Assembly (NCBI GenBank): GCA_964465955.1 | Contig: CAYXMN010000002.1 | Coordinates: 1-34,544, forward strand | Reading direction: 5' to 3' | Origin: an uncultured Planctomycetales bacterium | GTDB taxonomy: Bacteria > 4484-113 > JAFGCY01 | Length of the DNA: 34,544 nucleotides | In this document: in pieces, positions 5,691-30,989 of the stretch | Numbering within the stretch: the stretch's first letter is position 1 | How the letters are laid out: every line of letters begins with the position of its first letter | Notes under the pieces: generated by a model | The model's input: the letters and a program-made list of their open reading frames with translations, nothing else | Databases searched by the model: none | Told to the model about the DNA's origin: nothing | Made by a program: the position numbers and the translations under genes

Positions 5691-6596
5691 ATGGCGATAC
5701 CCGGTTACCAAAGCATCATGTTACCTTTGTTGCGCTTAACCGGCGACGGTGTGACCCGGCAGCTGCGTGATGCAATCGAACAACTCGCCAAAGAATTTGG
5801 ACTGACTGAAGAGGAACGCGGGGAGTTGCTACCCAGCGGACATCAAAGCACATTCGATAACCGCGTGGGCTGGGCCAGGACATATCTAAAGAAAGCTGGT
5901 TTGGTTGAGATGCCGAAGCGTGGGTACATCCAGATCACCCTGCGAGGCAAGACTACTCTTGATGAGAAACCAACAGAGATCAATGAAAAATACCTTCGGC
6001 AGTTTCCGGAGTTTGTTGACTTCAAGACTAGCAAACGTACAGTTGATGAGGAAACAGATTGCACTTTGTCGACCCAAAAGCAAACTCCTGAAGAACAGCT
6101 TGAGCTAGCACACCAAGTCCTGCGTGCTGAGTTGATCGATGAGCTGACCGCCGCGATCAAAGCCTGCTCCCCCAAGTTTTTCGAGCAACTTGTAGTTGAC
6201 TTGCTAGTAAAAATGGGTTACGGCGGATCACTGCGCGAGGCAGGCCAGGCCATTGGCAGATCTGGTGACGAAGGCATTGATGGCATCATTAAGGAAGACC
6301 GGCTGGGTCTCGATATCATCTATCTGCAAGCTAAGCGTTGGGAGAACGTTATCGGTAGGCCGGAGATTCAGAAATTCGCCGGGGCGCTGCAAGGCCAGCG
6401 TGCGCGCAAGGGAGTTTTCATAACAACATCCTCGTTCACAAGAGAAGCTAGGGAGTATGTTTCACTGATCGAGACAAAGATCATCTTGATCGATGGCAGC
6501 GATCTCGCTGAATACATGATCGATAACGGCGTGGGTGTGACCACCCACAGAGTATTTGAAGTGAAACTGATTGATAACGACTATTTTGAGGAGTAA
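5691..6596 (+). CDS. mrr: Mrr-family type IV (modification-dependent) restriction endonuclease
   Basis: N-terminal winged-helix Mrr_N-like region (MLPLLRL..GWARTYLKKAGL) plus the Mrr catalytic core (GDEGIDGII...LQAKRW...GVFITTSSFT). Confidence 0.9.
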   Translation: MAIPGYQSIMLPLLRLTGDGVTRQLRDAIEQLAKEFGLTEEERGELLPSGHQSTFDNRVGWARTYLKKAGLVEMPKRGYIQITLRGKTTLDEKPTEINEKYLRQFPEFVDFKTSKRTVDEETDCTLSTQKQTPEEQLELAHQVLRAELIDELTAAIKACSPKFFEQLVVDLLVKMGYGGSLREAGQAIGRSGDEGIDGIIKEDRLGLDIIYLQAKRWENVIGRPEIQKFAGALQGQRARKGVFITTSSFTREAREYVSLIETKIILIDGSDLAEYMIDNGVGVTTHRVFEVKLIDNDYFEE

Positions 6597-6610
6597 CTCT
6601 AGCTAGGGGA

Positions 6611-7579
6611 ATGATCATGAAGCAGTGGGTTGTCTTGGTGCTCGCTAGCCTATTTCTGCTGCTTGCGCTGCCTGCATTCGCCTATGTCCCGCATACCGGC
6701 GACCGCGCCGCACCGCTGAGCGGCCGCGACCTCAAGACCGACAGCGAGCTGAGCCTGGAAGACCTGCGCGGCAAGTGGGTGCTGTTGGACTTCTGGCATA
6801 TGTACTGCCCGTCCTGCCTGCGCGATCTGCCCGGTGTCTGCACGGCAGCCAAGCCGTACATGGCGGCAGGCGCGCTTGACGTTGTCCTGGTCAGCCTCGA
6901 TCAACCTGAGACAGCGGCAGCGATGAAGGAGTTCGTGGCCAGCCTGCCAATCGAACCGCATGTGATCTACTCAGGCGGCGGCCCGCTGCCCATCGGCCCG
7001 CCTGTGCTAGTCGCACCCGACTGGGACTCCTATGCGCCACAAGCCACGGAATGGGGCGTCTCCGGTGTTCCGGCATCATACCTGATCACACCAGACGGCA
7101 CCATCGCCGCCAAGCGCATCCGCCGGGATAACGTGGATGACTTGCTAGATTATTTCCTCGGACGAGGCGCGGCTTACGCGCCAATCGCGCTCCGCACGAG
7201 CGTTAGTTACAGCGATGACGCGCAAGTCAATGTCATGATCGAAGCAGCCAGCGCCAGCCACGCCCCGTTGCAAGCGCGGATCACCTATCGCCTGGAACGT
7301 GTGGCGTATAAAGAATACGAGGGCTGCCTGATCCAGGATCGCGGCACTAGAGAATATACAGACTGGGTCACGAGCGAGCTGTGCCTCATGTTCAGCGAGT
7401 TCAGCGACGCGGTGCAGCCGTGCTTGATTGATGCCAGCGGCTACCAAGGCCTGCAATACCGCGTTGAGGTGCTGCTGCCAGGCAGCGGGCGCTATAAGGA
7501 TGGTGCGGGCTTGTGGCTACGGCAATACGGGGACCTGGACTTTGCACTAGACTGGCTGGGCGGCGAGTCCGCGAATTAG
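6611..7579 (+). CDS. secreted TlpA/redoxin-family thiol-disulfide oxidoreductase with an unknown C-terminal domain of about 170 aa
   Basis: Signal peptide (LLLALPAFA). Thioredoxin-fold motif KWVLLDFWHMYCPSCLRDLP. GVPASYLITPDGTI cis-Pro loop region. Confidence 0.8.
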   Translation: MIMKQWVVLVLASLFLLLALPAFAYVPHTGDRAAPLSGRDLKTDSELSLEDLRGKWVLLDFWHMYCPSCLRDLPGVCTAAKPYMAAGALDVVLVSLDQPETAAAMKEFVASLPIEPHVIYSGGGPLPIGPPVLVAPDWDSYAPQATEWGVSGVPASYLITPDGTIAAKRIRRDNVDDLLDYFLGRGAAYAPIALRTSVSYSDDAQVNVMIEAASASHAPLQARITYRLERVAYKEYEGCLIQDRGTREYTDWVTSELCLMFSEFSDAVQPCLIDASGYQGLQYRVEVLLPGSGRYKDGAGLWLRQYGDLDFALDWLGGESAN

Positions 7580-7680
7580 CCGCGGGGGCGCCAGCGCCAC
7601 CACTCGCCGCAGCGTAAGCTAGCAGTTGCGCTTGCTGCGGAAATAGTCATGGGCAGCATCATCCTCGCGGATTCCCGCAG

Positions 7681-7716
7681 AAAAAAGGGGCGAAGCATTA
7701 GCTCCGCCCCTGAGTT
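7681..7716 (-). terminator. intrinsic terminator after the aldehyde dehydrogenase gene (possibly bidirectional)
   Basis: Hairpin GGGGCGAAGC-ATTA-GCTCCGCCCC (7687-7710). It is flanked by A6 on the plus strand, which is a U-run for the minus transcript, and by GAGTTTTCT on the other side. Confidence 0.6.
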
Positions 7717-7738
7717 TTCTCCAGTTATGCCCGCGGCT

Positions 7739-9328
7739 TTACTCCCCGAACTTGATGCCCTGGGCTAATGGCAGCTCGGTGGTGTAGTTGATCGTGTTGG
7801 TCTGGCGGCGCATGTACGCCTTCCAGCTGTCCGAGCCGCTCTCGCGCCCGCCGCCGGTCTCCTTCTCGCCGCCGAACGCGCCGCCGATTTCCGCGCCGCT
7901 CGTGCCGATGTTGACGTTGGCGATGCCGCAGTCGCTGCCCGCCGCGGAGAGGAAGCGCTCGGCCTCCAGCAGGTTTTGTGTGAAGATCGCGCTCGACAGG
8001 CCCTGGGGCACGCCGTTATGCAGCGCGATGGCTTCGTCCAGCGTGTTGTACTTGATCAGGTACAGAATGCAGGAGAAGGTCTCATCCTGGACGATTTGGT
8101 AGTGGTTCTCCGCCTCGGCGATGCACGGCGTCACATAGCAGCCGCCGGGGTAGTTCTCGCCGCTGAGGCGCTCGCCGCCGCAGAGAATCTTGCCGCCTTC
8201 CTGCTTCACCTTCTCCACCGCCGCCATCAAGTCGTCCACCGCGCCGGTATTGACCAGCGGCCCCATCAGCGTCTTAGCGTCCAGCGGATCGCCGATGGGC
8301 ACCGTGCTATACGCCTTCACCAGCCGGTCGCGCAGCTCGTCATACTTGCTCGCGTGCACGATGATGCGCCGGGTCGAGGTGCAGCGCTGGCCCGCCGTGC
8401 CGACCGCGCCGAACAGGATCGCGCGTAGCGCAATGTCGAGATCGGCGTGCTCGCTGACGATAATCGCGTTGTTGCCGCCCAGCTCCAGGATGGTGCGGCC
8501 CAGGCGCTGGCCGACGATGCTGCCCACGCGGTAGCCCATGCTGCACGAACCGGTCGCGCTGATCAGCGGCACGCGCTTGTCATGCAACATCCGCTCGCCG
8601 ACGGCACTGCCTTTGCCGATCACGAGGCTCGCCAGCGCCGGGTCGTAGCCGTTGCGCTCGAACACGCGCGCGGCGATCTTGGTGCAGGCGATGGCCGTCA
8701 GCGGCGTCTGGCTGGAGGGCTTCCACAGCACGGCGTCCCCGCAAACCCAGGCCAGCGCGGCGTTCCAGCTCCAGACCGCCACCGGGAAGTTGAACGCGGA
8801 GATCACGCCGACCACGCCCAGCGGGTGCCACTGCTCGCACATACGGTGGCCGGGGCGCTCGGACGGCATGGTGAAGCCGTAGAGCTGGCGCGACAGGCCC
8901 ACGGCAAAGTCGCAGATGTCGATCATCTCCTGCACTTCGCCCTCGCCCTCGGCGCGAATCTTGCCCATTTCGAGCGTGACCAGCGCGCCCAGCGCCTTCT
9001 TATAGCGCCGCAGCTCCTCGCCGAGCTGGCGCACCACCTCGCCGCGCTTGGGGGCGGGCACCGTGCGCCATTTCAGGAATGCCTCATGCGCGCGGGCGCA
9101 GACGCGGTCGTATTCCTCCGCCGTGGCCTGGCGCACCGAGCCGATCTGCGAGCCGTCGATGGGCGTCGAGACGTTCAGCACGTCGCCGCTGCCGAACCAT
9201 TCGCCGCAGAACGCGCCGGCGTGATCGGGCTTGAGGCCGAGCGATTCGAACAGCACCGCCTGGTCGACATCCTTCTTGATGCCGCTGATGGCGCTCTCCA
9301 ACTGCGCCATGATCTCCTTGAATTCCAT
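7739..9328 (-). CDS. ALDH7-type aldehyde dehydrogenase (alpha-aminoadipic semialdehyde / piperideine-6-carboxylate dehydrogenase-like)
   Basis: ALDH superfamily motifs ELGGNNAIIV and GTAGQRCTSTRR. The N-terminal region (GEWFGSGDVLNVSTPIDG) is typical of the ALDH7/AmaB/Pcd group. GGGAGGAAGG RBS precedes ATG 9328 (MEFKEIM). Confidence 0.9.
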   Translation of the reverse strand: MEFKEIMAQLESAISGIKKDVDQAVLFESLGLKPDHAGAFCGEWFGSGDVLNVSTPIDGSQIGSVRQATAEEYDRVCARAHEAFLKWRTVPAPKRGEVVRQLGEELRRYKKALGALVTLEMGKIRAEGEGEVQEMIDICDFAVGLSRQLYGFTMPSERPGHRMCEQWHPLGVVGVISAFNFPVAVWSWNAALAWVCGDAVLWKPSSQTPLTAIACTKIAARVFERNGYDPALASLVIGKGSAVGERMLHDKRVPLISATGSCSMGYRVGSIVGQRLGRTILELGGNNAIIVSEHADLDIALRAILFGAVGTAGQRCTSTRRIIVHASKYDELRDRLVKAYSTVPIGDPLDAKTLMGPLVNTGAVDDLMAAVEKVKQEGGKILCGGERLSGENYPGGCYVTPCIAEAENHYQIVQDETFSCILYLIKYNTLDEAIALHNGVPQGLSSAIFTQNLLEAERFLSAAGSDCGIANVNIGTSGAEIGGAFGGEKETGGGRESGSDSWKAYMRRQTNTINYTTELPLAQGIKFGE

Positions 9329-24095: not shown

Positions 24096-25013
24096 ATGAG
24101 ACTGCTACTCCTATCAGCCTGCTTAGGCAGCGCCTTGCTTTTTATGTCTTGTGACAATGTCGTGAAAAGCGATCAGCATGCTAGCTCATCACCTGTACAA
24201 CTTCGACTTGCCAGTTATAACATCCAAGATGCAAATGCCGAGGGTAATCCCTTTGCTGAGCAGTACACAGAAATCGACGACTGGATGTTTGAGAATTTCC
24301 AGCAAGCGACCTCATCTAGTGGCGGGTTAATCCTTAACATTACAAAAGAACAGAAGATGCTGAAGTGCCCTGTGAACGAGGATGGATTCAAACTGCCATA
24401 TCGTGATTCGTTGGTTATGGTGGAGGAAGCCAGGAAGAATGGTGACGAGACATTAGGTATTCAAGGATATACTTTTTTCTATGCTGCGGGAGAAATGCCA
24501 GACGAGATCACTGCTATGGTTCGAGAAATGAATTCCGAGGTATTGGCCGAATACTATCCCGTAGTTCCATTATGGCTTGCTGAAGCAGAATACGATAGTG
24601 CTGCGATGTGTCCAAATGGTGATATTCTCACGATGGGGCCAGTTGAGATTGGGACTATTGAAACCAAAGAGGATGCTGATGAAAAGACGACCAAAGAAGG
24701 TGGTTGTTGTGGCGGATCGTTTAATGCTAAGACATTTTATCGCTACAATGCGGATGGGGTTCTAATCAGCGCAGATAAGAGCTGGATTTTTACATTTGAC
24801 GATTTTTCCCCTGAGAAGCTGGCATCGCCAAACATGACCGTAAGATTGGACGGTGTAGTAACTTTCACTGGTGACGATGGAAATATTGTTGCGGTATATG
24901 ATTATGATTGGACTGAGTTGGGAACTAGTTTGCCTCCGATGAGGGATCTGCATTATTTCATGTTCTACCCAAAGTCGACCCTCGATCAGGTATATCACTG
25001 CCAACAAAGTTAG
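24096..25013 (+). CDS. lipoprotein of unknown function (island gene 1)
   Basis: Signal peptide plus lipobox LLFMSC. AT-rich codon usage unlike the backbone. No recognisable domain. Confidence 0.7.
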   Translation: MRLLLLSACLGSALLFMSCDNVVKSDQHASSSPVQLRLASYNIQDANAEGNPFAEQYTEIDDWMFENFQQATSSSGGLILNITKEQKMLKCPVNEDGFKLPYRDSLVMVEEARKNGDETLGIQGYTFFYAAGEMPDEITAMVREMNSEVLAEYYPVVPLWLAEAEYDSAAMCPNGDILTMGPVEIGTIETKEDADEKTTKEGGCCGGSFNAKTFYRYNADGVLISADKSWIFTFDDFSPEKLASPNMTVRLDGVVTFTGDDGNIVAVYDYDWTELGTSLPPMRDLHYFMFYPKSTLDQVYHCQQS

Positions 25014-25069
25014 AGTTGTTCTGGTGGACAGGGTGCTGGTGACTAACGTGTAGTAAAGGAGATCATGAG

Positions 25070-25594
25070 TTGAATAAGAGAATCCACTTATCAATGTACT
25101 TAGTACTGGTGTGTGTGCTCATTACATGTGTGGCGCATGCAGGTGAGAAAGCGGTGGGATGTTTCGCTTATCAGCAGTCGATTACCGTGGCTGGACCTCA
25201 GACACCATATGAACCATGTCAGACTGATGGTGGTTATTGTATCGACGTGCTAAGTTGTTTAGAGCCTTTGGATTATGATAGAGTATGTTTTCAAGCTCAG
25301 CAGTATACGTTTTTCATTTGGGAGTGTTATGCTGTATTCGGGAATACTTACCATAATATAGATTGCGGTAAAAGTATGGTGGTATCAAATCAGGTTGTCG
25401 GAAACGGCGAACGTGTGGCACAGATTTGTGATCCGAATGAATTATGTGCATTTGCTAATCTCCCAGATGTTGGTCCAAGTGATATAGTAGACGAATGGAT
25501 CAATGGTATGAGAGTAGTATTTGATACATTTACCATCACATGTGATTGCGAAGCGGGAGAATGTGTATCAAGCCAAAGCTCATCGGAAAGCTAA
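25070..25594 (+). CDS. secreted Cys-rich protein (12 Cys in the mature part), unknown function (island gene 2)
   Basis: Signal peptide LVLVCVLITCVAHA. AAGGAG lies upstream. TTG 25070 or ATG 25094 could be the start. Confidence 0.65.
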   Translation: MNKRIHLSMYLVLVCVLITCVAHAGEKAVGCFAYQQSITVAGPQTPYEPCQTDGGYCIDVLSCLEPLDYDRVCFQAQQYTFFIWECYAVFGNTYHNIDCGKSMVVSNQVVGNGERVAQICDPNELCAFANLPDVGPSDIVDEWINGMRVVFDTFTITCDCEAGECVSSQSSSES

Positions 25595-25675: not shown

Positions 25676-26070
25676 TATTGCATATTAGCGTAATGTGTAA
25701 ATCGAGAACTAAAGATGTATTGCTCCTGATTGCACTGCGGCTCGATCGCGGCTAGTGCCTGGGGGCGGACTGCGCCCGGGCAGGGTTAAGGTACATATCC
25801 GCCGGGTCTTCCTTGATGGGGGTGAACCCGCCGCGGTGGATCTCCCGCAGCTTCCGGCTGGTTAAACTAACCACCGCCACGCCAAAGCGAAAACAGCCAA
25901 GCAGATCACATGCAGCACGAGGACATTCCTGTCAACCCCGGCTGCTTGCTTTCCACCGCCGCCATAGCCTGGGAGATAAATGAGAATAGTAGTTATGAAT
26001 AAGGATATGGTATATGAGCATGGCGATGACTAAGAAATTATTCGGACATCCGAAATCAACCTTGCTAATA

Positions 26071-26099
26071 TTGCAAAACCCGTTAGGATATGTTACAAT
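26071..26099 (+). promoter_or_regulatory. sigma70 promoter TTGCAA-N17-TACAAT upstream of the NfeD-like/flotillin cluster
   Basis: Hexamers at 26071-26076 and 26094-26099. This predicts a leader of about 295 nt before ATG 26400. Confidence 0.5.
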
Positions 26100-26399
26100 T
26101 GCTGCGGTGACTAAAATGTTAGTCTAACGGAACAATTGCTAGGGCTGCTGAGAGCGGCCCTGGTGCGCGTAATAGAGAAACCGCGCGATTTACCCAGTTT
26201 TCTTCTTCAACATTCCCAAGGTTTACCAAAGCCAAGCCGCTTGCGGCAGGGCCAATCCCGGGTTATGGCCACACCGCGACGGCGGGTGCGCGGTCCGCCG
26301 CGGGCGGTAGAATTAAGCTGGGACGAAACGTAGCCCGGTTGGAACCTAACAGCCGGGACAACCAGCGGCGAACCGCTGGACGCAAGCAAGGAGCGCGAG

Positions 26400-27188
26400 A
26401 TGGCTGCGCTGACAACAGTGTATTGGCTGTGTTTCGGCTTCGGCCTGGTCTATGTCGTCGTGTCGGCGACGCTCGGCGCGATCGGCCATGGGCTGGCGAA
26501 TGTGGGCGGGCAGGATGTTGACGCCTCCGGGCATGACTTCGATGCCAGCGGCCACGATTTCGACGCCTCAGGCCACGACTTCGACGCCTCAGGGCACGAT
26601 TTCGACGCGGCTGGGCATGACGTGGACGCGGGAGGCGCTGGCAGCGGCGAGCTGGCCAGTGCGGACCTCTCCACGGACAGCACCGGCCTGGAGGCTGGAG
26701 CCACGGACGAAACGGCGGCGGGCCACGCCGGGCAGAGCGGCCATGGCGCGCAGTACGACACCCACGTCATGCCGTCGTTCAGCCCGTTTTCACCGCTGAG
26801 CATCGCGGGATTCCTCGCGGCATTCGGCGGCGCGGGCCTGGCGGCGACTGCCACGCAGCTCAATCCGCTGGCTACTCTCGGCATTGCCGCGGGCGGCGGG
26901 ATCGTGATGGGCTACTTGCTCTACTTGCTGATCGGCAAGCTGCTGTTCTCCATGCAGGGCAGCTCCGAAGCGCACCAAGCCGATATGCTCGGCCTGGATG
27001 CGGAGGTGCTGACTCCGGTGGAACATGAGCTTAGCGGCGAGATTGCCTATGTTCTGGAAGGCACGCGCTATACCGCCCCGGCGCGCCTGGCAAGCGCGGG
27101 GCGCGTCGAGAAGCGGGAGAACGTGCGGATTAAGGCCGTGCAGGGAAACATCGTGTACGTGGAGCAGAAACGCAAGTTACTAGAGTAA
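26400..27188 (+). CDS. NfeD/YqiJ-like membrane protein with a His/Asp heptad repeat loop
   Basis: N-terminal TM segment, five DASGHDF repeats, two further TM segments, and a C-terminal NfeD-type OB-fold region (GEIAYVLEGTRYTAPARL...VRIKAVQGNIVYVE). AAGGAG RBS. A flotillin gene lies downstream, as in yqiJK-type pairs. Confidence 0.8.
   Translation: MAALTTVYWLCFGFGLVYVVVSATLGAIGHGLANVGGQDVDASGHDFDASGHDFDASGHDFDASGHDFDAAGHDVDAGGAGSGELASADLSTDSTGLEAGATDETAAGHAGQSGHGAQYDTHVMPSFSPFSPLSIAGFLAAFGGAGLAATATQLNPLATLGIAAGGGIVMGYLLYLLIGKLLFSMQGSSEAHQADMLGLDAEVLTPVEHELSGEIAYVLEGTRYTAPARLASAGRVEKRENVRIKAVQGNIVYVEQKRKLLE
26520..26624 (+). repeat. five tandem 21-nt coding repeats (DASGHDF x4 plus DAAGHDV)
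   Basis: Units at 26520, 26541, 26562, 26583 and 26604. Synonymous differences between units indicate selection at the protein level. Confidence 0.9.
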
Positions 27189-27241
27189 CCGCAGCATGCG
27201 CAGGTTATTAATCCGGTTACTCCATGTCTAGGTGGTTAGTG

Positions 27242-27943
27242 ATGGCGATTTACGATGATTTCTCCAGCGGGCAACTCGACCCTGAGCGCTGGGCTAAGGG
27301 TGAAATGTGGGATGGCGCTAAGCTGGTTTGGCGCTGGATTGATCCAGGCTTGCGGACTGAAGTCAACTCGGGACGGTTGACATTAGCGGTGGAGCGCTAC
27401 AGCTTGAGCCATGCTGCGGTGCAGATTTTCGACAATCCGAAGGCGTTGTACTTAAGCACGCGGGCTTGGCCCATCGGCGAGCGGCCCGTGAAGTTCAGCT
27501 GCACCCTGGCGGCGGACTGCACCGGCGATTTGGACGACATTCGCAACGGTTTCGCGAGTTTCAATGTGCTCGATTTCGCGACAGGCACAGTGATGGATAT
27601 TGTGGCTAACGGCCGCAAGGTATGGTCCATTACCGAACGGCTCGACATCCCTGGTGTGGCGGAGCCGCCCGCGCCCTTCTCGGACTACTGCGACTTGAAC
27701 GTTGCCAGCTCTCCGGGGCAGGAGCACGAGGTGGCTGTGCTGTATAACCCGCAGGCCGGGGAGGTGAGCTACCAGGTTGACGGCGAGGTGCGCCAGCAGC
27801 GCTCTCTGCCCACCCGGCCCGCCAGCTTGACGCTGGGCATGGGGCTGATCACGTTGTATCCCATCGAGCATGGGCGCTCCGTGAGCTGCCGGGGCCAGGG
27901 TGGCCTGGGGCTGTGGGGCCGGATCGCGAGCGAAGAACTTTAA
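27242..27943 (+). CDS. hypothetical cytoplasmic protein (233 aa) between the NfeD-like and ArsR genes
   Basis: AGGTGG RBS 6 nt before ATG 27242. High GC3. No signal peptide and no motif I can name. Confidence 0.7.
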   Translation: MAIYDDFSSGQLDPERWAKGEMWDGAKLVWRWIDPGLRTEVNSGRLTLAVERYSLSHAAVQIFDNPKALYLSTRAWPIGERPVKFSCTLAADCTGDLDDIRNGFASFNVLDFATGTVMDIVANGRKVWSITERLDIPGVAEPPAPFSDYCDLNVASSPGQEHEVAVLYNPQAGEVSYQVDGEVRQQRSLPTRPASLTLGMGLITLYPIEHGRSVSCRGQGGLGLWGRIASEEL

Positions 27944-28018
27944 TGGCTAGAAGCGCCGGCCCCGGACGGGAGGGAACTGGGGTGGCGGCAAGGGCTGGGC
28001 AGCGCCCCGGCCAGACGA

Positions 28019-28062
28019 TTGCACCTTGACATGGATTCTGTTATACTTCGACACATGTCGAA
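28019..28062 (+). promoter_or_regulatory. promoter TTGCAC-N17-TATACT plus 7-2-7 palindrome TTCGACA-ca-TGTCGAA overlapping the arsR-like start
   Basis: -35 at 28019-28024 and -10 at 28042-28047. The palindrome at 28047-28062 spans the predicted TSS and ATG 28055. No SD is present, so the transcript is probably leaderless and autoregulated. Confidence 0.45.
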
Positions 28063-28378
28063 TTATCGAACCGAAGATGTTGAACGGCTGGCAGAAGTGT
28101 TCAAGTGCTTGGGCAACCGCCACCGTTTGCGAATTCTGATCGAGCTCGCCGCCTGCTGCAAGCCGGACGCGGCTTGTTGCGGGGGGGCGGGATCGCGCAG
28201 GGTAGGCGAGCTCGCCGAGGGCCAGGAGCTGGCGGCTAGCACGGTATCGCACCACATCAAGGAACTGAACCGCGCGGGATTGATGTGCTGCGCCAAACAT
28301 GGCAAGCAGACGCTGTGCTGCGTTGACCAAGGCGTGCTGGCGGAACTCCGGGAGTTCTTCAATGGCCTTGCCCGCTGA
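28055..28378 (+). CDS. ArsR/SmtB-family metalloregulator with four vicinal Cys-Cys pairs
   Basis: FKCLGNRHRLRILIEL ... STVSHHIKELNRAGL winged-helix core. CC pairs occur in AACCKPDAACCGG (an insertion at the alpha3 position) and in LMCCAKHGKQTLCCV (wing). Confidence 0.85.
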   Translation: MSNYRTEDVERLAEVFKCLGNRHRLRILIELAACCKPDAACCGGAGSRRVGELAEGQELAASTVSHHIKELNRAGLMCCAKHGKQTLCCVDQGVLAELREFFNGLAR

Positions 28379-28418
28379 CCCGGTTCGAGACGGCAGAGAC
28401 TATGTCAAGGAGTACGAG

Positions 28419-28574
28419 ATGTGTAGTAGTGAACAAGGCCACAGCGGCCAGTGCGGCAGCAAGACCTTTTCCTGGCAGTGCGACTGCGGATGCAACATGA
28501 CCGTGACGGTATCCTGCGACTGCAGCGGGCACGAAGGCCAGGACAAGGAAGGGAAGTGCTGCGGCGGTAAATAG
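28419..28574 (+). CDS. 51-aa Cys-rich protein (9 Cys, 2 His), metallothionein-like candidate
   Basis: AAGGAG RBS 6 nt upstream of ATG 28419. Sequence is MCSSEQGHSGQCGSKTFSWQCDCGCNMTVTVSCDCSGHEGQDKEGKCCGGK. It lies immediately downstream of the ArsR-family gene. Confidence 0.6.
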   Translation: MCSSEQGHSGQCGSKTFSWQCDCGCNMTVTVSCDCSGHEGQDKEGKCCGGK

Positions 28575-28722
28575 CCGCCGGAGCACGGGGGGGATTCGAC
28601 CCCCGGCCCTGCCGTGAGGTGCGCTGGGCTTAATCGGAGAATGCTTGACCTAGCGTATAATGCCACGCAGGATTCGGCGGAGGCATTCGGGGCCGGGGGA
28701 CCGGCAAAGGAGCGGAAGAAAG

Positions 28723-30285
28723 ATGGATTTACTGTATGCAATCGCGCTGCCGATGGCGCAACTCAAACCACCCAGCACGACAACCATCGTGTTCATCATG
28801 GTCGGCGTCGCCGTCCTTTTTATCATTCTCGGCATTTGGGCCAGCCGCTTCACCAAGGTGCCGCCCAACACCGTGATGGTGATCTCCGGCGGCAGCGGCC
28901 AGACCATCCGCCGGACGGACGGCACCCGCACGAAGCTGGGCTTCCGCATTATCAAGGGCGGCGGCACGTTCGTCCTGCCGATCCTGGAACGCGTCGATCT
29001 CCTGAGCCTGGAGCTAATGACCATCGATGTGAAGACGCCTGAGGTCTACACCCTGCAAGGCGTGCCGGTGATGGTGGACGGCGTGGCGCAGATCAAGGTG
29101 AAAAGCGACGACGTCTCGATCGCGACCGCCGTCGAGCAGTTCTTAAGCAAGTCCACCGTGGACATCATGAATGTGGCGCAACAGACGCTGGAAGGCCACC
29201 TGCGCGCGATCATGGGCACGATGAACGTCGAGGAGATCTACCGCAACCGCGACGCCTTCGCCCAGCGCGTGCAGGACATCGCGGCGACGGACTTAGCCAA
29301 CATGGGCCTCGCCATCATCTCGTTTACCATCCGCGACGTGCGCGACAACGAGGGCTATCTCGACGCCCTGGGCAAGAAGCGCACCGCCGAAGTGAAGCGC
29401 GACGCGCGCATCGGCGAGGCGGAGGCGGAGCGCGACGCGACGATCAAGGCCGCATCGTTCCGCCAGGAAGGCGAGACGGCGAAGTTTGAGGCCGAGACGA
29501 AGATCGCCGCCAGCAATCGCGACTACGAGATTCAGGTGGCTAATTACACCAAGTCGGTCAACAAGGAAAAGGCCGAGGCGGACTTGTCCTACGACCTGCA
29601 AAAGAACCTTTCCTTGCGCCAGGTGCGCGAGAACGAGGTCGAGGTCGAGATTGTGGAGAAGAACAAGCGCATCGAACTGGAGCAGCTCGAAATCCAGCGC
29701 AAGCAGAAGGAGCTGGAGGCGACGATCCAGCGCCCGGCGGACGCCAAGAAGTACGAGACCGAGCGCCACGCCGAGGCGGAGCGTTTCCGGCTGGAGAACG
29801 TGGCGGAGGGCGAGTCGCGCAGCCGCAAGCTGACCGGCTTCGCTGAGGCCGAGGTCGTCCAGGCCAAGGGTAATGCGGAGGCCGAAGCGGTGAAGGCCAA
29901 GGGTCTCGCGGAAGCGGAGATCATCCGCCAGAAGGGTCTCTCGGAAGCGGCGGGGTCGATGGAAAAGGCTAAAGCCTGGCAGGAGTACAACGAGGCGGCC
30001 ATCGCGCAGCTGCTCATCGAGAAGCTGCCGGAGATCGCCCGCGCCATCGCCGAGCCGATGGCCCGCATCCAGAGCATCACCATCGTAGACTCAGGCGGCC
30101 AGGCCGGGACTGGCGCGCACAAGATCACGCAGGATATCGGCAAGGTGCTGGCGGAGCTGCCGCCGGTGGTCGAAGCGCGCAGCGGCGTGGACTTGAAGCA
30201 GTTGATCCAGATGCTGCCGGACATCGCGGCCAACGCGGCGCACAAAAAGAGCGCGCCGGCGGATGACGGCGGCAAGGTGAAGTAA
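28723..30285 (+). CDS. flotillin-family (SPFH domain) membrane protein, YqiK/FloT-like
   Basis: N-terminal TM segment, SPFH domain (VMVDGVAQIKVKSDD...MGLAIISFTIRDVRD), and Glu/Ala-rich coiled-coil flotillin repeats (AEAERDA.., AEAEAVKAKGLAEAE). Confidence 0.9.
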   Translation: MDLLYAIALPMAQLKPPSTTTIVFIMVGVAVLFIILGIWASRFTKVPPNTVMVISGGSGQTIRRTDGTRTKLGFRIIKGGGTFVLPILERVDLLSLELMTIDVKTPEVYTLQGVPVMVDGVAQIKVKSDDVSIATAVEQFLSKSTVDIMNVAQQTLEGHLRAIMGTMNVEEIYRNRDAFAQRVQDIAATDLANMGLAIISFTIRDVRDNEGYLDALGKKRTAEVKRDARIGEAEAERDATIKAASFRQEGETAKFEAETKIAASNRDYEIQVANYTKSVNKEKAEADLSYDLQKNLSLRQVRENEVEVEIVEKNKRIELEQLEIQRKQKELEATIQRPADAKKYETERHAEAERFRLENVAEGESRSRKLTGFAEAEVVQAKGNAEAEAVKAKGLAEAEIIRQKGLSEAAGSMEKAKAWQEYNEAAIAQLLIEKLPEIARAIAEPMARIQSITIVDSGGQAGTGAHKITQDIGKVLAELPPVVEARSGVDLKQLIQMLPDIAANAAHKKSAPADDGGKVK

Positions 30286-30311
30286 GGAGAACGCATCTCA
30301 CTCGCAAATCA

Positions 30312-30345
30312 AGCCGGGGGCCCACGCGGCCTCCGGCTTTTTTTA
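30312..30345 (+). terminator. intrinsic terminator after the flotillin gene
   Basis: Long GC stem AGCCGGGGGCC..GGCCTCCGGCT followed by TTTTTTT. Confidence 0.8.
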
Positions 30346-30361
30346 TTCTGGAGGGGCGCGT

Positions 30362-30480
30362 AGGGGCGAAGCCATGCTTCGCCCATCCTCCGCCCGGTAG
30401 CCGGGGCTTTGGCCCCAGCGCTCCAGTGGGGCAGGCAGCCTGCCTGCCATCCCCCGGCCTAAAGGCCGGGCTACCAGCGC
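30362..30480. repeat. cluster of four consecutive GC-rich hairpins (REP-like elements) between convergent genes
   Basis: GGGGCGAAGC-catg-CTTCGCCC (30362-30385; relative of the 7687-7710 hairpin). GGTAGCCGGGGCTTTGGCCCC (inverted relative of 15417-15443). GGCAGGCAG-c-CTGCCTGCC. CCGGCCTAAAGGCCGGGCTACCAGCGC. Confidence 0.55.
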
Positions 30481-30989
30481 TACTGGGCGGGCTGGCGCGG
30501 CTCGCGCAGCAGCACGCGGGAGATAAATAGGTATAGCGCGGCGAGCCAGGTGAGGTTGAGGAGAAGGGAAAGGAATGAAGCCCAGTAAGGTAGCTCCAAG
30601 TGTAAATCCGATATCAAAGCGCTACACACAGTTGTGGTAACCGCGCCATCGAGCTCACTCCCGAAAGAATATAGCGGAAGCACTGTCAGGCCTACCGCAA
30701 GTTTCGCCCAGTATTCGAGGGCGAAACGCAGTCCCCCAGTTAGGCTCGGGAAGATTCCCGGCAATAGGAATACCATTCCATTCAGCGCTACAGCTGCTGC
30801 CATAACGCCAACCAGCGCCAATGCCCATCGAGTGCGCCCTTGTTTCCACCACCAGACAGCCAGCGCGAACAACATCAGCCCTGCTGCAGCACCTTCCAGC
30901 TCAAATTGGCTGTTGTTCAATTCAAAGTACCAGTCGCCAACTGTGGATCGAAACAACTCATGCGTAATGCTTTCGACGAATTCCACCAA
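30480..30989 (-). CDS. polytopic membrane protein, hypothetical
   Basis: About four hydrophobic segments. TTG/GTG start with no clear SD. It lies 27 nt downstream of the preceding minus-strand gene, so the two are probably co-transcribed. Confidence 0.6.
   Translation of the reverse strand: MVEFVESITHELFRSTVGDWYFELNNSQFELEGAAAGLMLFALAVWWWKQGRTRWALALVGVMAAAVALNGMVFLLPGIFPSLTGGLRFALEYWAKLAVGLTVLPLYSFGSELDGAVTTTVCSALISDLHLELPYWASFLSLLLNLTWLAALYLFISRVLLREPRQPAQ

Follow-up and report, generated by a model that had tools for sequence, protein, structure and literature searches.

What does the small, cysteine (Cys)-rich reading frame behind an ArsR/SmtB-family repressor gene of an uncultured Planctomycetales bacterium encode, and does its product handle metals? 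The frame occupies positions 28419–28574 of the plus strand of a 34,544-nucleotide (nt) stretch of contig CAYXMN010000002.1 (GenBank assembly GCA_964465955.1), here called the window, and specifies a protein of 51 amino acids (aa), here called the miniprotein. An earlier annotation made from the letters alone (the sequence-only reading) had put it forward as a candidate novel bacterial metallothionein. Only a small number of bacterial metallothionein families, among them SmtA/BmtA and MymT, have been described, and none of these is, to our knowledge, tied to the arsenic/mercury branch of the ArsR regulators. From the analyses described below, we put at about even the chance that the miniprotein is a cytoplasmic metallothionein-like thiolate protein, representing a new lineage-restricted family and produced under the control of a thiolate-type ArsR.

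A conserved gene for a Cys-rich miniprotein

The gene runs from an ATG at 28419–28421 to a TAG at 28572–28574, and its product reads MCSSEQGHSGQCGSKTFSWQCDCGCNMTVTVSCDCSGHEGQDKEGKCCGGK. Direct reading bears out the composition given in the sequence-only reading, that is, 51 aa with nine Cys (positions 2, 12, 21, 23, 25, 33, 35, 47, and 48; 17.6 per cent of all residues) and two histidines (His; positions 8 and 38). The Cys spacing is, exactly as described there, C-x9-C-x8-C-x-C-x-C-x7-C-x-C-x11-CC, which contains CxCxC, CxC, and CC motifs. The ribosome-binding site (RBS) that had been pointed out, a Shine–Dalgarno (SD) sequence AAGGAG, is present on the plus strand at 28407–28412, 6 nt 5′ of the ATG, and the arrangement AAGGAG-N6-ATG is kept in the window and in the two other loci that carry the gene (L001 and L002). 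Codon usage is native-like, as had also been said: on an index resembling the codon adaptation index (CAI) and built from the neighbouring genes, the frame scores 0.60, inside the range of those genes (0.54–0.76), with a GC content at third codon positions (GC3) of 0.77, whereas the other five frames score 0.29–0.51.

One statement of the sequence-only reading has to be corrected. The longer open reading frame (ORF) 28299..28574, which was said to hide the gene out of register, is in the same frame and begins at an upstream ATG (28419 − 28299 = 120 nt, or 40 codons); it overlaps the 3′ end of arsR and is out of frame with arsR only. Neither of the longer starts, at 28299 (91 aa) and at 28362 (70 aa; called as P0001 in the database), has a counterpart in L001 or L002, and both were discarded. 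Because these caller-used upstream ATGs are not shared and L002 has an in-frame stop upstream of the miniprotein ATG, the 51-aa form, whose start with AAGGAG-N6-ATG is the only one common to all three loci, is taken to be the conserved one. Two antisense ORFs, 28359..28586 and 28400..28741, were dismissed because neither their codon usage nor the substitution pattern favoured them.

The single indel among the three loci is 6 nt long and in frame, and the differences between the window and L002 are distributed 11/6/20 over the three codon positions, the third being the richest. Ratios of nonsynonymous to synonymous substitution (dN/dS, Nei–Gojobori) are 0.37–0.56 for the miniprotein, 0.14–0.36 for ArsR, and 0.09–0.13 for the flotillin encoded downstream, and the pattern of change in the miniprotein points to purifying selection acting strongly on the Cys and on a predicted hairpin core and loosely on the rest. 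These figures bear on the suggestion that no functional protein is made at all and that the stretch is a conserved 3′ untranslated region of arsR or a decaying gene. The tiny size of the family and a dN/dS above that of the neighbours would suit such an explanation, but three lineages have kept the frame, the RBS spacing, the stop position, and all core Cys codons, and the in-frame indel, the enrichment of third-position changes, and the native codon usage in this frame only all speak against it; we consider it highly improbable. The 51-aa ORF, on this comparison, is a genuine conserved gene.

Just 3′ of its stop codon lies a G5–7/C5 hairpin (28587..28604, plus strand) that is kept in the three loci, without compensatory changes. 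It has no U-tract, a terminator scan made no call there, and it is at most a possible transcript end or stabiliser; no known RNA family was found in 25900–30500.

A very small family outside the described ones

Besides the window product (called as 70 aa), a word-indexed search of 5.8 billion proteins found just two others, P0002, which is 78 per cent identical to the miniprotein and lies on a 2.7-Mb ENA contig, and P0003, which has 50 aa, is 57 per cent identical, and lies on a 1.9-kb contig. The same two were the only full-length matches in an exhaustive HMMER search of 1.84 billion cluster representatives with a three-sequence profile. The other 21 HMMER matches were discarded: they are long repeat proteins aligned over several short stretches each, a likeness of strand composition and not of descent, and the three that were inspected (P0071, P0083, and P0091) consist of beta-strand-like units (e.g. 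‘SFTYT..ATVNVTVNC’ in P0071). In 60 related genomes, nine of which belong to the same family, no match had an E value below 0.009, and a search of JGI metagenome contigs with miniprotein peptide patterns found none. The sole match in a collection of species-representative genomes, in a metagenome-assembled genome (MAG) of the NC10 group (L003), was rejected, since all it shows is a CDCGCN motif within a 199-aa protein that is unrelated. Against Pfam, NCBIfam, PHROGs, and PDB sequences, the miniprotein had no match even at E ≤ 1 or E ≤ 10, in keeping with the earlier proposal that it may represent a new family. By these searches, the miniprotein belongs to no described family, and its own family, though real, is very small and confined to a single lineage.

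In the three-sequence alignment, M1, C2, G13, S14, T16, F17, and C21-D-C-G-C-N26 are invariant, as are, in the C-terminal part, T28-V-T-V-S-C-D-C35, H38, and E44-G-K-C-C-G-G-K51. Eight Cys are thus invariant (C2, C21, C23, C25, C33, C35, C47, and C48), and about 40 per cent of the other positions vary; C12 and H8 of the window protein are not conserved. The L001 and L002 proteins have a second CC pair at the N terminus (C2/C3), and the Cys count in the family is 9–10.

AlphaFold2 (AF2), given the three-row alignment, predicts one beta-hairpin with strands at 13–20 and 26–33, at a predicted local distance difference test score (pLDDT) of 58 overall and 76 in the best block. In this low-confidence model, C21, C23, and C25 sit in the turn, near C33 and C35 just past the second strand, and the termini with C2(C3) and C47/C48 are disordered. 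A Foldseek search of the PDB with the model gave no neighbour at E < 5.

The ArsR partner and its putative control region

The gene upstream, arsR (28055..28378, plus strand), encodes a 107-aa repressor of the ArsR/SmtB family that matches PF01022 (HTH_5, the ArsR-type winged helix-turn-helix) at 26.8 bits against a cut-off of 22. Its start was set by homologues at M13 of a 119-aa ORF (position 28055, beginning MSNYR). Its Cys comprise C18 and four vicinal pairs (34/35, 41/42, 78/79, and 88/89), all invariant in the three loci. In an AF2 model (pLDDT 79.6) it is predicted to be a normal winged helix with the order a1-a2-loop-a3-aR-b1-b2-a5, with CC34/35 and CC41/42 in an expanded loop (34–47) after helix 2 and CC78/79 and CC88/89 on the wing strands (77–82 and 85–90). 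The alpha5 zinc site of His, Asp, and Glu was not found in this ArsR, and its candidate ligands are Cys only.

The distance from the arsR stop to the miniprotein start is 40 nt in the window and 40–45 nt across the three loci, and a scan of the gap detected neither a promoter nor a terminator. The miniprotein gene is, on this arrangement, very likely cotranscribed with that of the repressor.

A putative sigma-70-type promoter (28019..28047, plus strand) consists of TTGCAC (28019–28024), a 17-nt spacer, and TATACT (28042–28047), and its hexamers are conserved or better at the other loci (TTGAAC/TATACT in L001 and TTGCAC/TACAAT in L002). Because a simple consensus promoter scan gave it no score, we count this promoter as inferred. 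It would start the transcript at or next to the ATG at 28055, ahead of which there is no SD sequence, and would thus yield a putative leaderless mRNA. The start codon of arsR is spanned by a perfect 7+7 inverted repeat, TTCGACA-ca-TGTCGAA (TTCGACAcaTGTCGAA; 28047..28062), which is invariant in all three loci and is a candidate ArsR operator for autorepression. One half-site of this repeat also encodes the ArsR N terminus, ATGTCGAAnTAYCG corresponding to MSNYR (window 28047–28062; L037 1648–1670; L038 1770–1791), and this double use may explain why MSNYR is conserved across an ArsR clade with leaderless starts.

A clade of arsenic- and mercury-linked regulators

Among 67 ArsR homologues found, those that are 42–50 per cent identical to the window ArsR have in common the MSNYR start, an AACC..C..CVG loop, the recognition helix STLSHHIKELNRAGL, and a wing Cys. 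In three loci of this clade, arsR is followed directly by a gene for an arsenite methyltransferase, arsM (NF008823, 351–364 bits, cut-off 263); in two, arsR is followed by unknown and/or DsbD_TM genes and then by those for HgcA and HgcB (NF040863, 448–463 bits, cut-off 275); and one further locus has arsR, an unknown gene, and a DsbD_TM gene at the contig end. An hgcAB-linked ArsR of Pseudodesulfovibrio mercurii ND132 has been described as having Cys near the N terminus, in the coil after helix 2, and in a beta strand, and arsenic was reported to raise the expression of hgcA and hgcB in that organism (10.1101/2022.10.17.512643). The kinship with the arsM- and hgcAB-linked members of the clade points to a derivation of the window ArsR from a lineage of soft-metal(loid) sensors and not from the SmtB-type zinc sensors. 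Since its relatives precede arsM or hgcAB, it is likely to respond not to Zn but to soft metal(loid)s, for example As(III) or Hg(II).

Searching JGI metagenomes for the operator DNA pattern brought up three further stretches, none of which shows the miniprotein. L038 is a clade arsR-arsM locus and L037 a clade arsR whose stretch ends within the gene, leaving the downstream part unseen; both have the same 16-mer operator over a leaderless MSNYR start. The third, L036 (400–581), has the operator and the MSNYR start, after which the frame is no longer ArsR-like (MSNYRNDRRAVVVSTATW..), and is apparently a truncated or decayed arsR. A 134-aa protein, P0070, joins a clade ArsR in its N-terminal two-thirds to the C-terminal ~50 residues of an ArsM, ACCGGCSC tail included; either a deletion has fused arsR and arsM here or the assembly is chimeric.

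The same clade counts against a reading of the pair as a thiol redox or sulfane-sulfur module, in which ArsR would sense oxidants or persulfides and the miniprotein would either buffer thiols sacrificially or carry persulfides. Persulfide sensors of the ArsR family are established, with BigR and SqrR sensing through disulfide or polysulfide formation, and the nine Cys in the regulator and 9–10 in the miniprotein, many of them vicinal, together with a sensor that has no His, Asp, or Glu metal ligands, could be seen in that light. The nearest clade of the regulator is, however, linked to arsM and hgcAB and not to sulfide-oxidation genes, and the module has no sqr, rhodanese, pdo, or thioredoxin gene, which leaves this explanation with a slim chance.

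The genome (G000) has, apart from the window locus, a canonical operon of arsR (with an ELCAC motif), acr3, and arsM on the minus strand of contig C82 (L035, ~6495–8727), in which acr3 scores 374 bits and the ArsM homologue, a 405-aa open frame, is 51 per cent identical over the aligned part. The window ArsR is therefore a second and different metal(loid) regulator, and one of seven ArsR-family genes in the genome.

Short Cys motifs recur among these proteins. ArsM ends in ..TCCGGCSC, HgcB in ..SCDCDSGCC, and the miniprotein in ..SCDCSGH..KCCGGK, and the ArsR loop AACCGG resembles the short tail motif of the miniprotein; the HgcB ferredoxins behind two sister ArsRs (L016 6134–6430; L017 6343–6633) end in ..TCGCGEDSSRCG and ..SCDCDSGCC. 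We treat the likeness among the motifs of the miniprotein, the ArsR loop, ArsM, and HgcB as an analogy only. An origin of the miniprotein as an arsM remnant was considered and rejected, the match being limited to an 8-residue tail (KEGKCCGG/KPGTCCGG).

These motifs enter into a further alternative, namely that the miniprotein is a metallochaperone or co-sensor that would pass a metal(loid) to ArsR or to a distant exporter or methyltransferase in the manner of ArsD and ArsA, or would modulate ArsR directly. It would account for the vicinal CC pairs, one at the C terminus and, in L001 and L002, a second at the N terminus, which recall ArsD-type chaperones, for the ‘CCGG’ motif of the miniprotein that occurs also in the ArsR sensor loop (AACCGGAG) and in ArsM tails, and for the one-to-one association with the regulator at every locus; acr3 and arsM elsewhere in the genome would be possible recipients. 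The miniprotein has, however, no homology to ArsD or to any chaperone family, its operon is without a transporter or enzyme, and the common motifs are just 7–8 residues long. We judge this alternative to be unlikely.

Weighing a metallothionein-like role

The features by which metallothioneins are classed operationally, low mass and conserved CxC/CC motifs of high Cys content, are found in the miniprotein (51 aa, 17.6 per cent Cys, eight of them invariant), and because it matches no described family, ‘candidate new metallothionein-like family’ stays the best reading. The proposal of the sequence-only reading thus stands as far as a real, conserved Cys-rich protein outside the known families is concerned; its parallel with the smtB-smtA logic is a loose one. 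Metal binding by the miniprotein and a protective role are suggested by analogy, and metal-inducible expression we infer from the ArsR partner and the operator alone; repression at the palindrome and the nature of the effector are presumed. The ions concerned would most likely resemble As(III), Hg(II), or Cd(II).

The pair might work as follows. Without an effector, a dimer of the Cys-rich ArsR would sit on the palindrome TTCGACAcaTGTCGAA, over the start of the leaderless mRNA, and block transcription. A thiophilic metal(loid), with As(III)/Sb(III), Hg(II), Cd(II), and possibly Cu(I) as candidates, would bind the thiolates of the CC pairs and cause the repressor to be released, whereupon the operon would be transcribed and the miniprotein would accumulate. 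The miniprotein would then hold the same ion through its 8–10 Cys (and H38) at both ends of the beta-hairpin and so buffer it in the cytoplasm. That all parts of a more specific proposal should hold seems to us possible though doubtful: in it, a single beta-hairpin would be the basis of a new family of metallothioneins specialised for ions such as As(III) or Hg(II), the switch would be an ArsR sensing through its four CC pairs, and the miniprotein would be a free-standing counterpart of the Cys tails with which ArsM and HgcB capture their substrates.

Several observations weigh against a metallothionein. The ArsR falls below the cut-off of NF033788 (46.7 versus 55 bits), and the miniprotein has no detectable homology to any metallothionein by the profiles PF02069 and NF052418 (see below). 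Its aromatic residues F17 and W19 and its regular beta-hairpin are unusual for classical metallothioneins, and the AF2 model is itself poor (pLDDT 58) and without structural neighbours. There are only three members, all of them close relatives; because their flotillins are ~90 per cent identical, the shared position between the nfeD-like and flotillin genes is due to common descent and does not count as independent support for linkage. Finally, the genome already has an arsR-acr3-arsM operon, and it is not obvious why it should require a further arsenic buffer.

If the miniprotein does bind As(III), Hg(II), or Cd(II), it would provide a new minimal scaffold for metal(loid) sequestration, a 51-aa beta-hairpin with eight Cys, and the locus would offer a matched sensor–operator pair for biosensor work and help to explain how effectors are read by the poorly understood arsM/hgcAB-linked ArsR clade. 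The reach of such a finding would be limited to three members, all from one uncultured lineage.

The nfeD–flotillin insertion site

In three of three loci, the arsR-miniprotein pair lies between the same two genes. The upstream border is a gene for an NfeD-like membrane protein (26400..27188, plus strand; a weak match to PF01957), and the downstream border is the flotillin (SPFH/Band 7) gene floT (28723..30285, plus strand; PF01145 at 117.6 bits and PF15975 at 41.2 bits), the start of which was fixed by homologues. Two relatives, G002 and G006, have nfeD adjoining floT, with no arsR-miniprotein pair. A DUF6081 gene (27224..27943, plus strand; PF19559 at 100 bits) is a second, independent insert that lies outside the arsR-miniprotein module: it is missing from L001 and is present without the cassette on a JGI contig (that of P0096) with an 88-per-cent-identical flotillin, the order there being nfeD-DUF6081-floT with a 170-bp gap. 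Across the gap as a whole (window 27189–28722; L030–L033; P0096 contig), the cassette therefore occurs alone in L001 and with DUF6081 in the window. In G004, the gap holds two unrelated genes of ~455 aa, and that of G001 has the same size and probably a similar content. From this comparison of gene orders, arsR and the miniprotein gene are an accessory two-gene module, and the nfeD–floT gap is an insertion hotspot; the absence of the cassette from close relatives fits the behaviour typical of resistance cassettes.

The flotillin gene probably has its own promoter. A TATAAT box (28656..28661, plus strand) in TAGCGTATAATGC is kept in the window, L001, L002, and G002, and in G002, a relative without the cassette, the leader downstream of it is kept as well. 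This leader of ~60 nt (GGCGGAGGCATTCGGGGCCGGGGGACCGGCAAAGGAG; window 28662–28722), between the TATAAT box and the flotillin start, also occurs in L001, L002, and L030; it is partly kept in cassette-less relatives and has no Rfam match.

The site bears directly on the possibility that the miniprotein is a structural zinc-knuckle or iron–sulfur protein, such as a zinc-ribbon-like adaptor on an NfeD/flotillin scaffold, with ArsR merely a local regulator. The predicted CxC...CxC beta-hairpin resembles a zinc knuckle in the model, the match in the NC10 MAG (WQCDCGCNVRVG..C-x2-C in its unrelated 199-aa protein) looks zinc-ribbon-like, and the module always lies between nfeD and floT. Yet the flotillin promoter and leader are conserved with or without the cassette, relatives with the nfeD–floT pair are without the module, and the unrelated inserts make the location look like a permissive hotspot; a functional tie of the module to flotillin is, on these comparisons, not supported. 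Eight invariant Cys, moreover, exceed the need of one structural site. We think it improbable that the miniprotein is such an adaptor. A precursor of a ribosomally synthesized and post-translationally modified peptide was also considered and rejected, the flanks having no genes for a radical-SAM enzyme, a cyclodehydratase, lanthipeptide enzymes, or a protease/transporter.

The NfeD-like protein has five DASGHDF heptads after its first transmembrane helix (26520–26624). Because the G004 orthologue (L031 24–1013) also has a linker there, nonrepetitive and rich in His, Asp, Ser, and Gly (..SGHSLELSSSDLDSGHDGLDSVHGELDAHS..), we regard the acidic His-rich loop as a feature of the NfeD lineage that is not tied to the arsR cassette. 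Elsewhere in the window, whose GC content is 62 per cent, the genes at 24096–25594 (GC 0.42–0.45, GC3 0.34–0.44) and 5691–6596 (GC 0.50) are low in GC and were probably acquired horizontally.

Comparison with known systems

The sequence-only reading had likened the locus to smtB-smtA. That comparison is justified in so far as a small (~50–56 aa) cytosolic protein rich in Cys and His is encoded next to an ArsR/SmtB-family repressor, here with 40 nt between the two genes, and the expected logic, in which metal frees the repressor and a metal buffer is made, would by analogy be alike. It fails at the sensor, which is of a thiolate-only type with CC pairs and is without the alpha5 His/Asp/Glu zinc site of SmtB. 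The gene order differs too: arsR and the miniprotein gene form a single codirectional operon, whereas smtB and smtA are transcribed divergently. The miniprotein itself has no sequence relationship to SmtA/BmtA. The earlier remark that its Cys pattern is unlike theirs agrees with the profile search, in which neither the 51-aa nor the 91-aa form matched PF02069 (Metallothio_Pro, gathering score 33 bits) at E ≤ 1; PF02069 run against the whole genome in all frames found nothing, with a Synechococcus elongatus control above the cut-off. The Cys pattern and the predicted beta-hairpin of the model also differ from the zinc-finger-like fold of SmtA. The Cys9His2 count of the window protein equals the ligand set of SmtA (Zn4Cys9His2), two of the residues counted, C12 and H8, being unconserved.

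MymT, the metallothionein with which mycobacteria bind copper, has 53 aa and shares with the miniprotein a CGC, seven residues with alternating hydrophobics, a CxC, and a further Cys pair near the C terminus. It is controlled by the CsoR-type regulator RicR and not by an ArsR (PMC3944814). The MymT equivalog NF052418 (cut-off 80 bits) did not match the miniprotein at E ≤ 1, and its genome-wide scan at E ≤ 10 misses 28419–28574. For a direct comparison, a MymT sequence was used that NF052418 verified as a family member at 99.6 bits; hhalign aligned DCGCNMTVTVSCDC to GCGCRVRIEVPCHC with 61 per cent probability over 18 columns, pairing DCGCNMTVTVSCDCSGHE with GCGCRVRIEVPCHCAGAG. None of 300 shuffles reached the score, but because reversed MymT scores almost equally (22.4 versus 24.1), the likeness is one of Cys spacing and beta-strand pattern and not of homology. 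At the level of sequence pattern, it hints that the two proteins may assemble a thiolate cluster on a hairpin in a comparable manner.

By analogy, vicinal Cys pairs that could serve as metalloid ligands, encoded in an ArsR-controlled operon, also recall ArsD. That protein has ~120 aa and a thioredoxin-like fold and works with ArsA; the miniprotein has no Pfam or NCBIfam match that would make it an ArsD homologue, and the module has no arsA.

A further comparison is with the ArsRs associated with arsM and hgcAB (e.g. ArsR2 of P. mercurii ND132, likened by its described Cys positions). With the clade members to which it is 42–50 per cent identical, the window ArsR has the leaderless MSNYR start, the operator, and the Cys positions (N-terminal helix, coil after helix 2, and wing strand) in common, and it differs in that single Cys are expanded to four CC pairs. 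It differs also in what it is expected to control: loci of the arsM/hgcAB type regulate a methyltransferase or HgcAB, whereas the gene found here in that place encodes a 51-aa Cys-rich protein.

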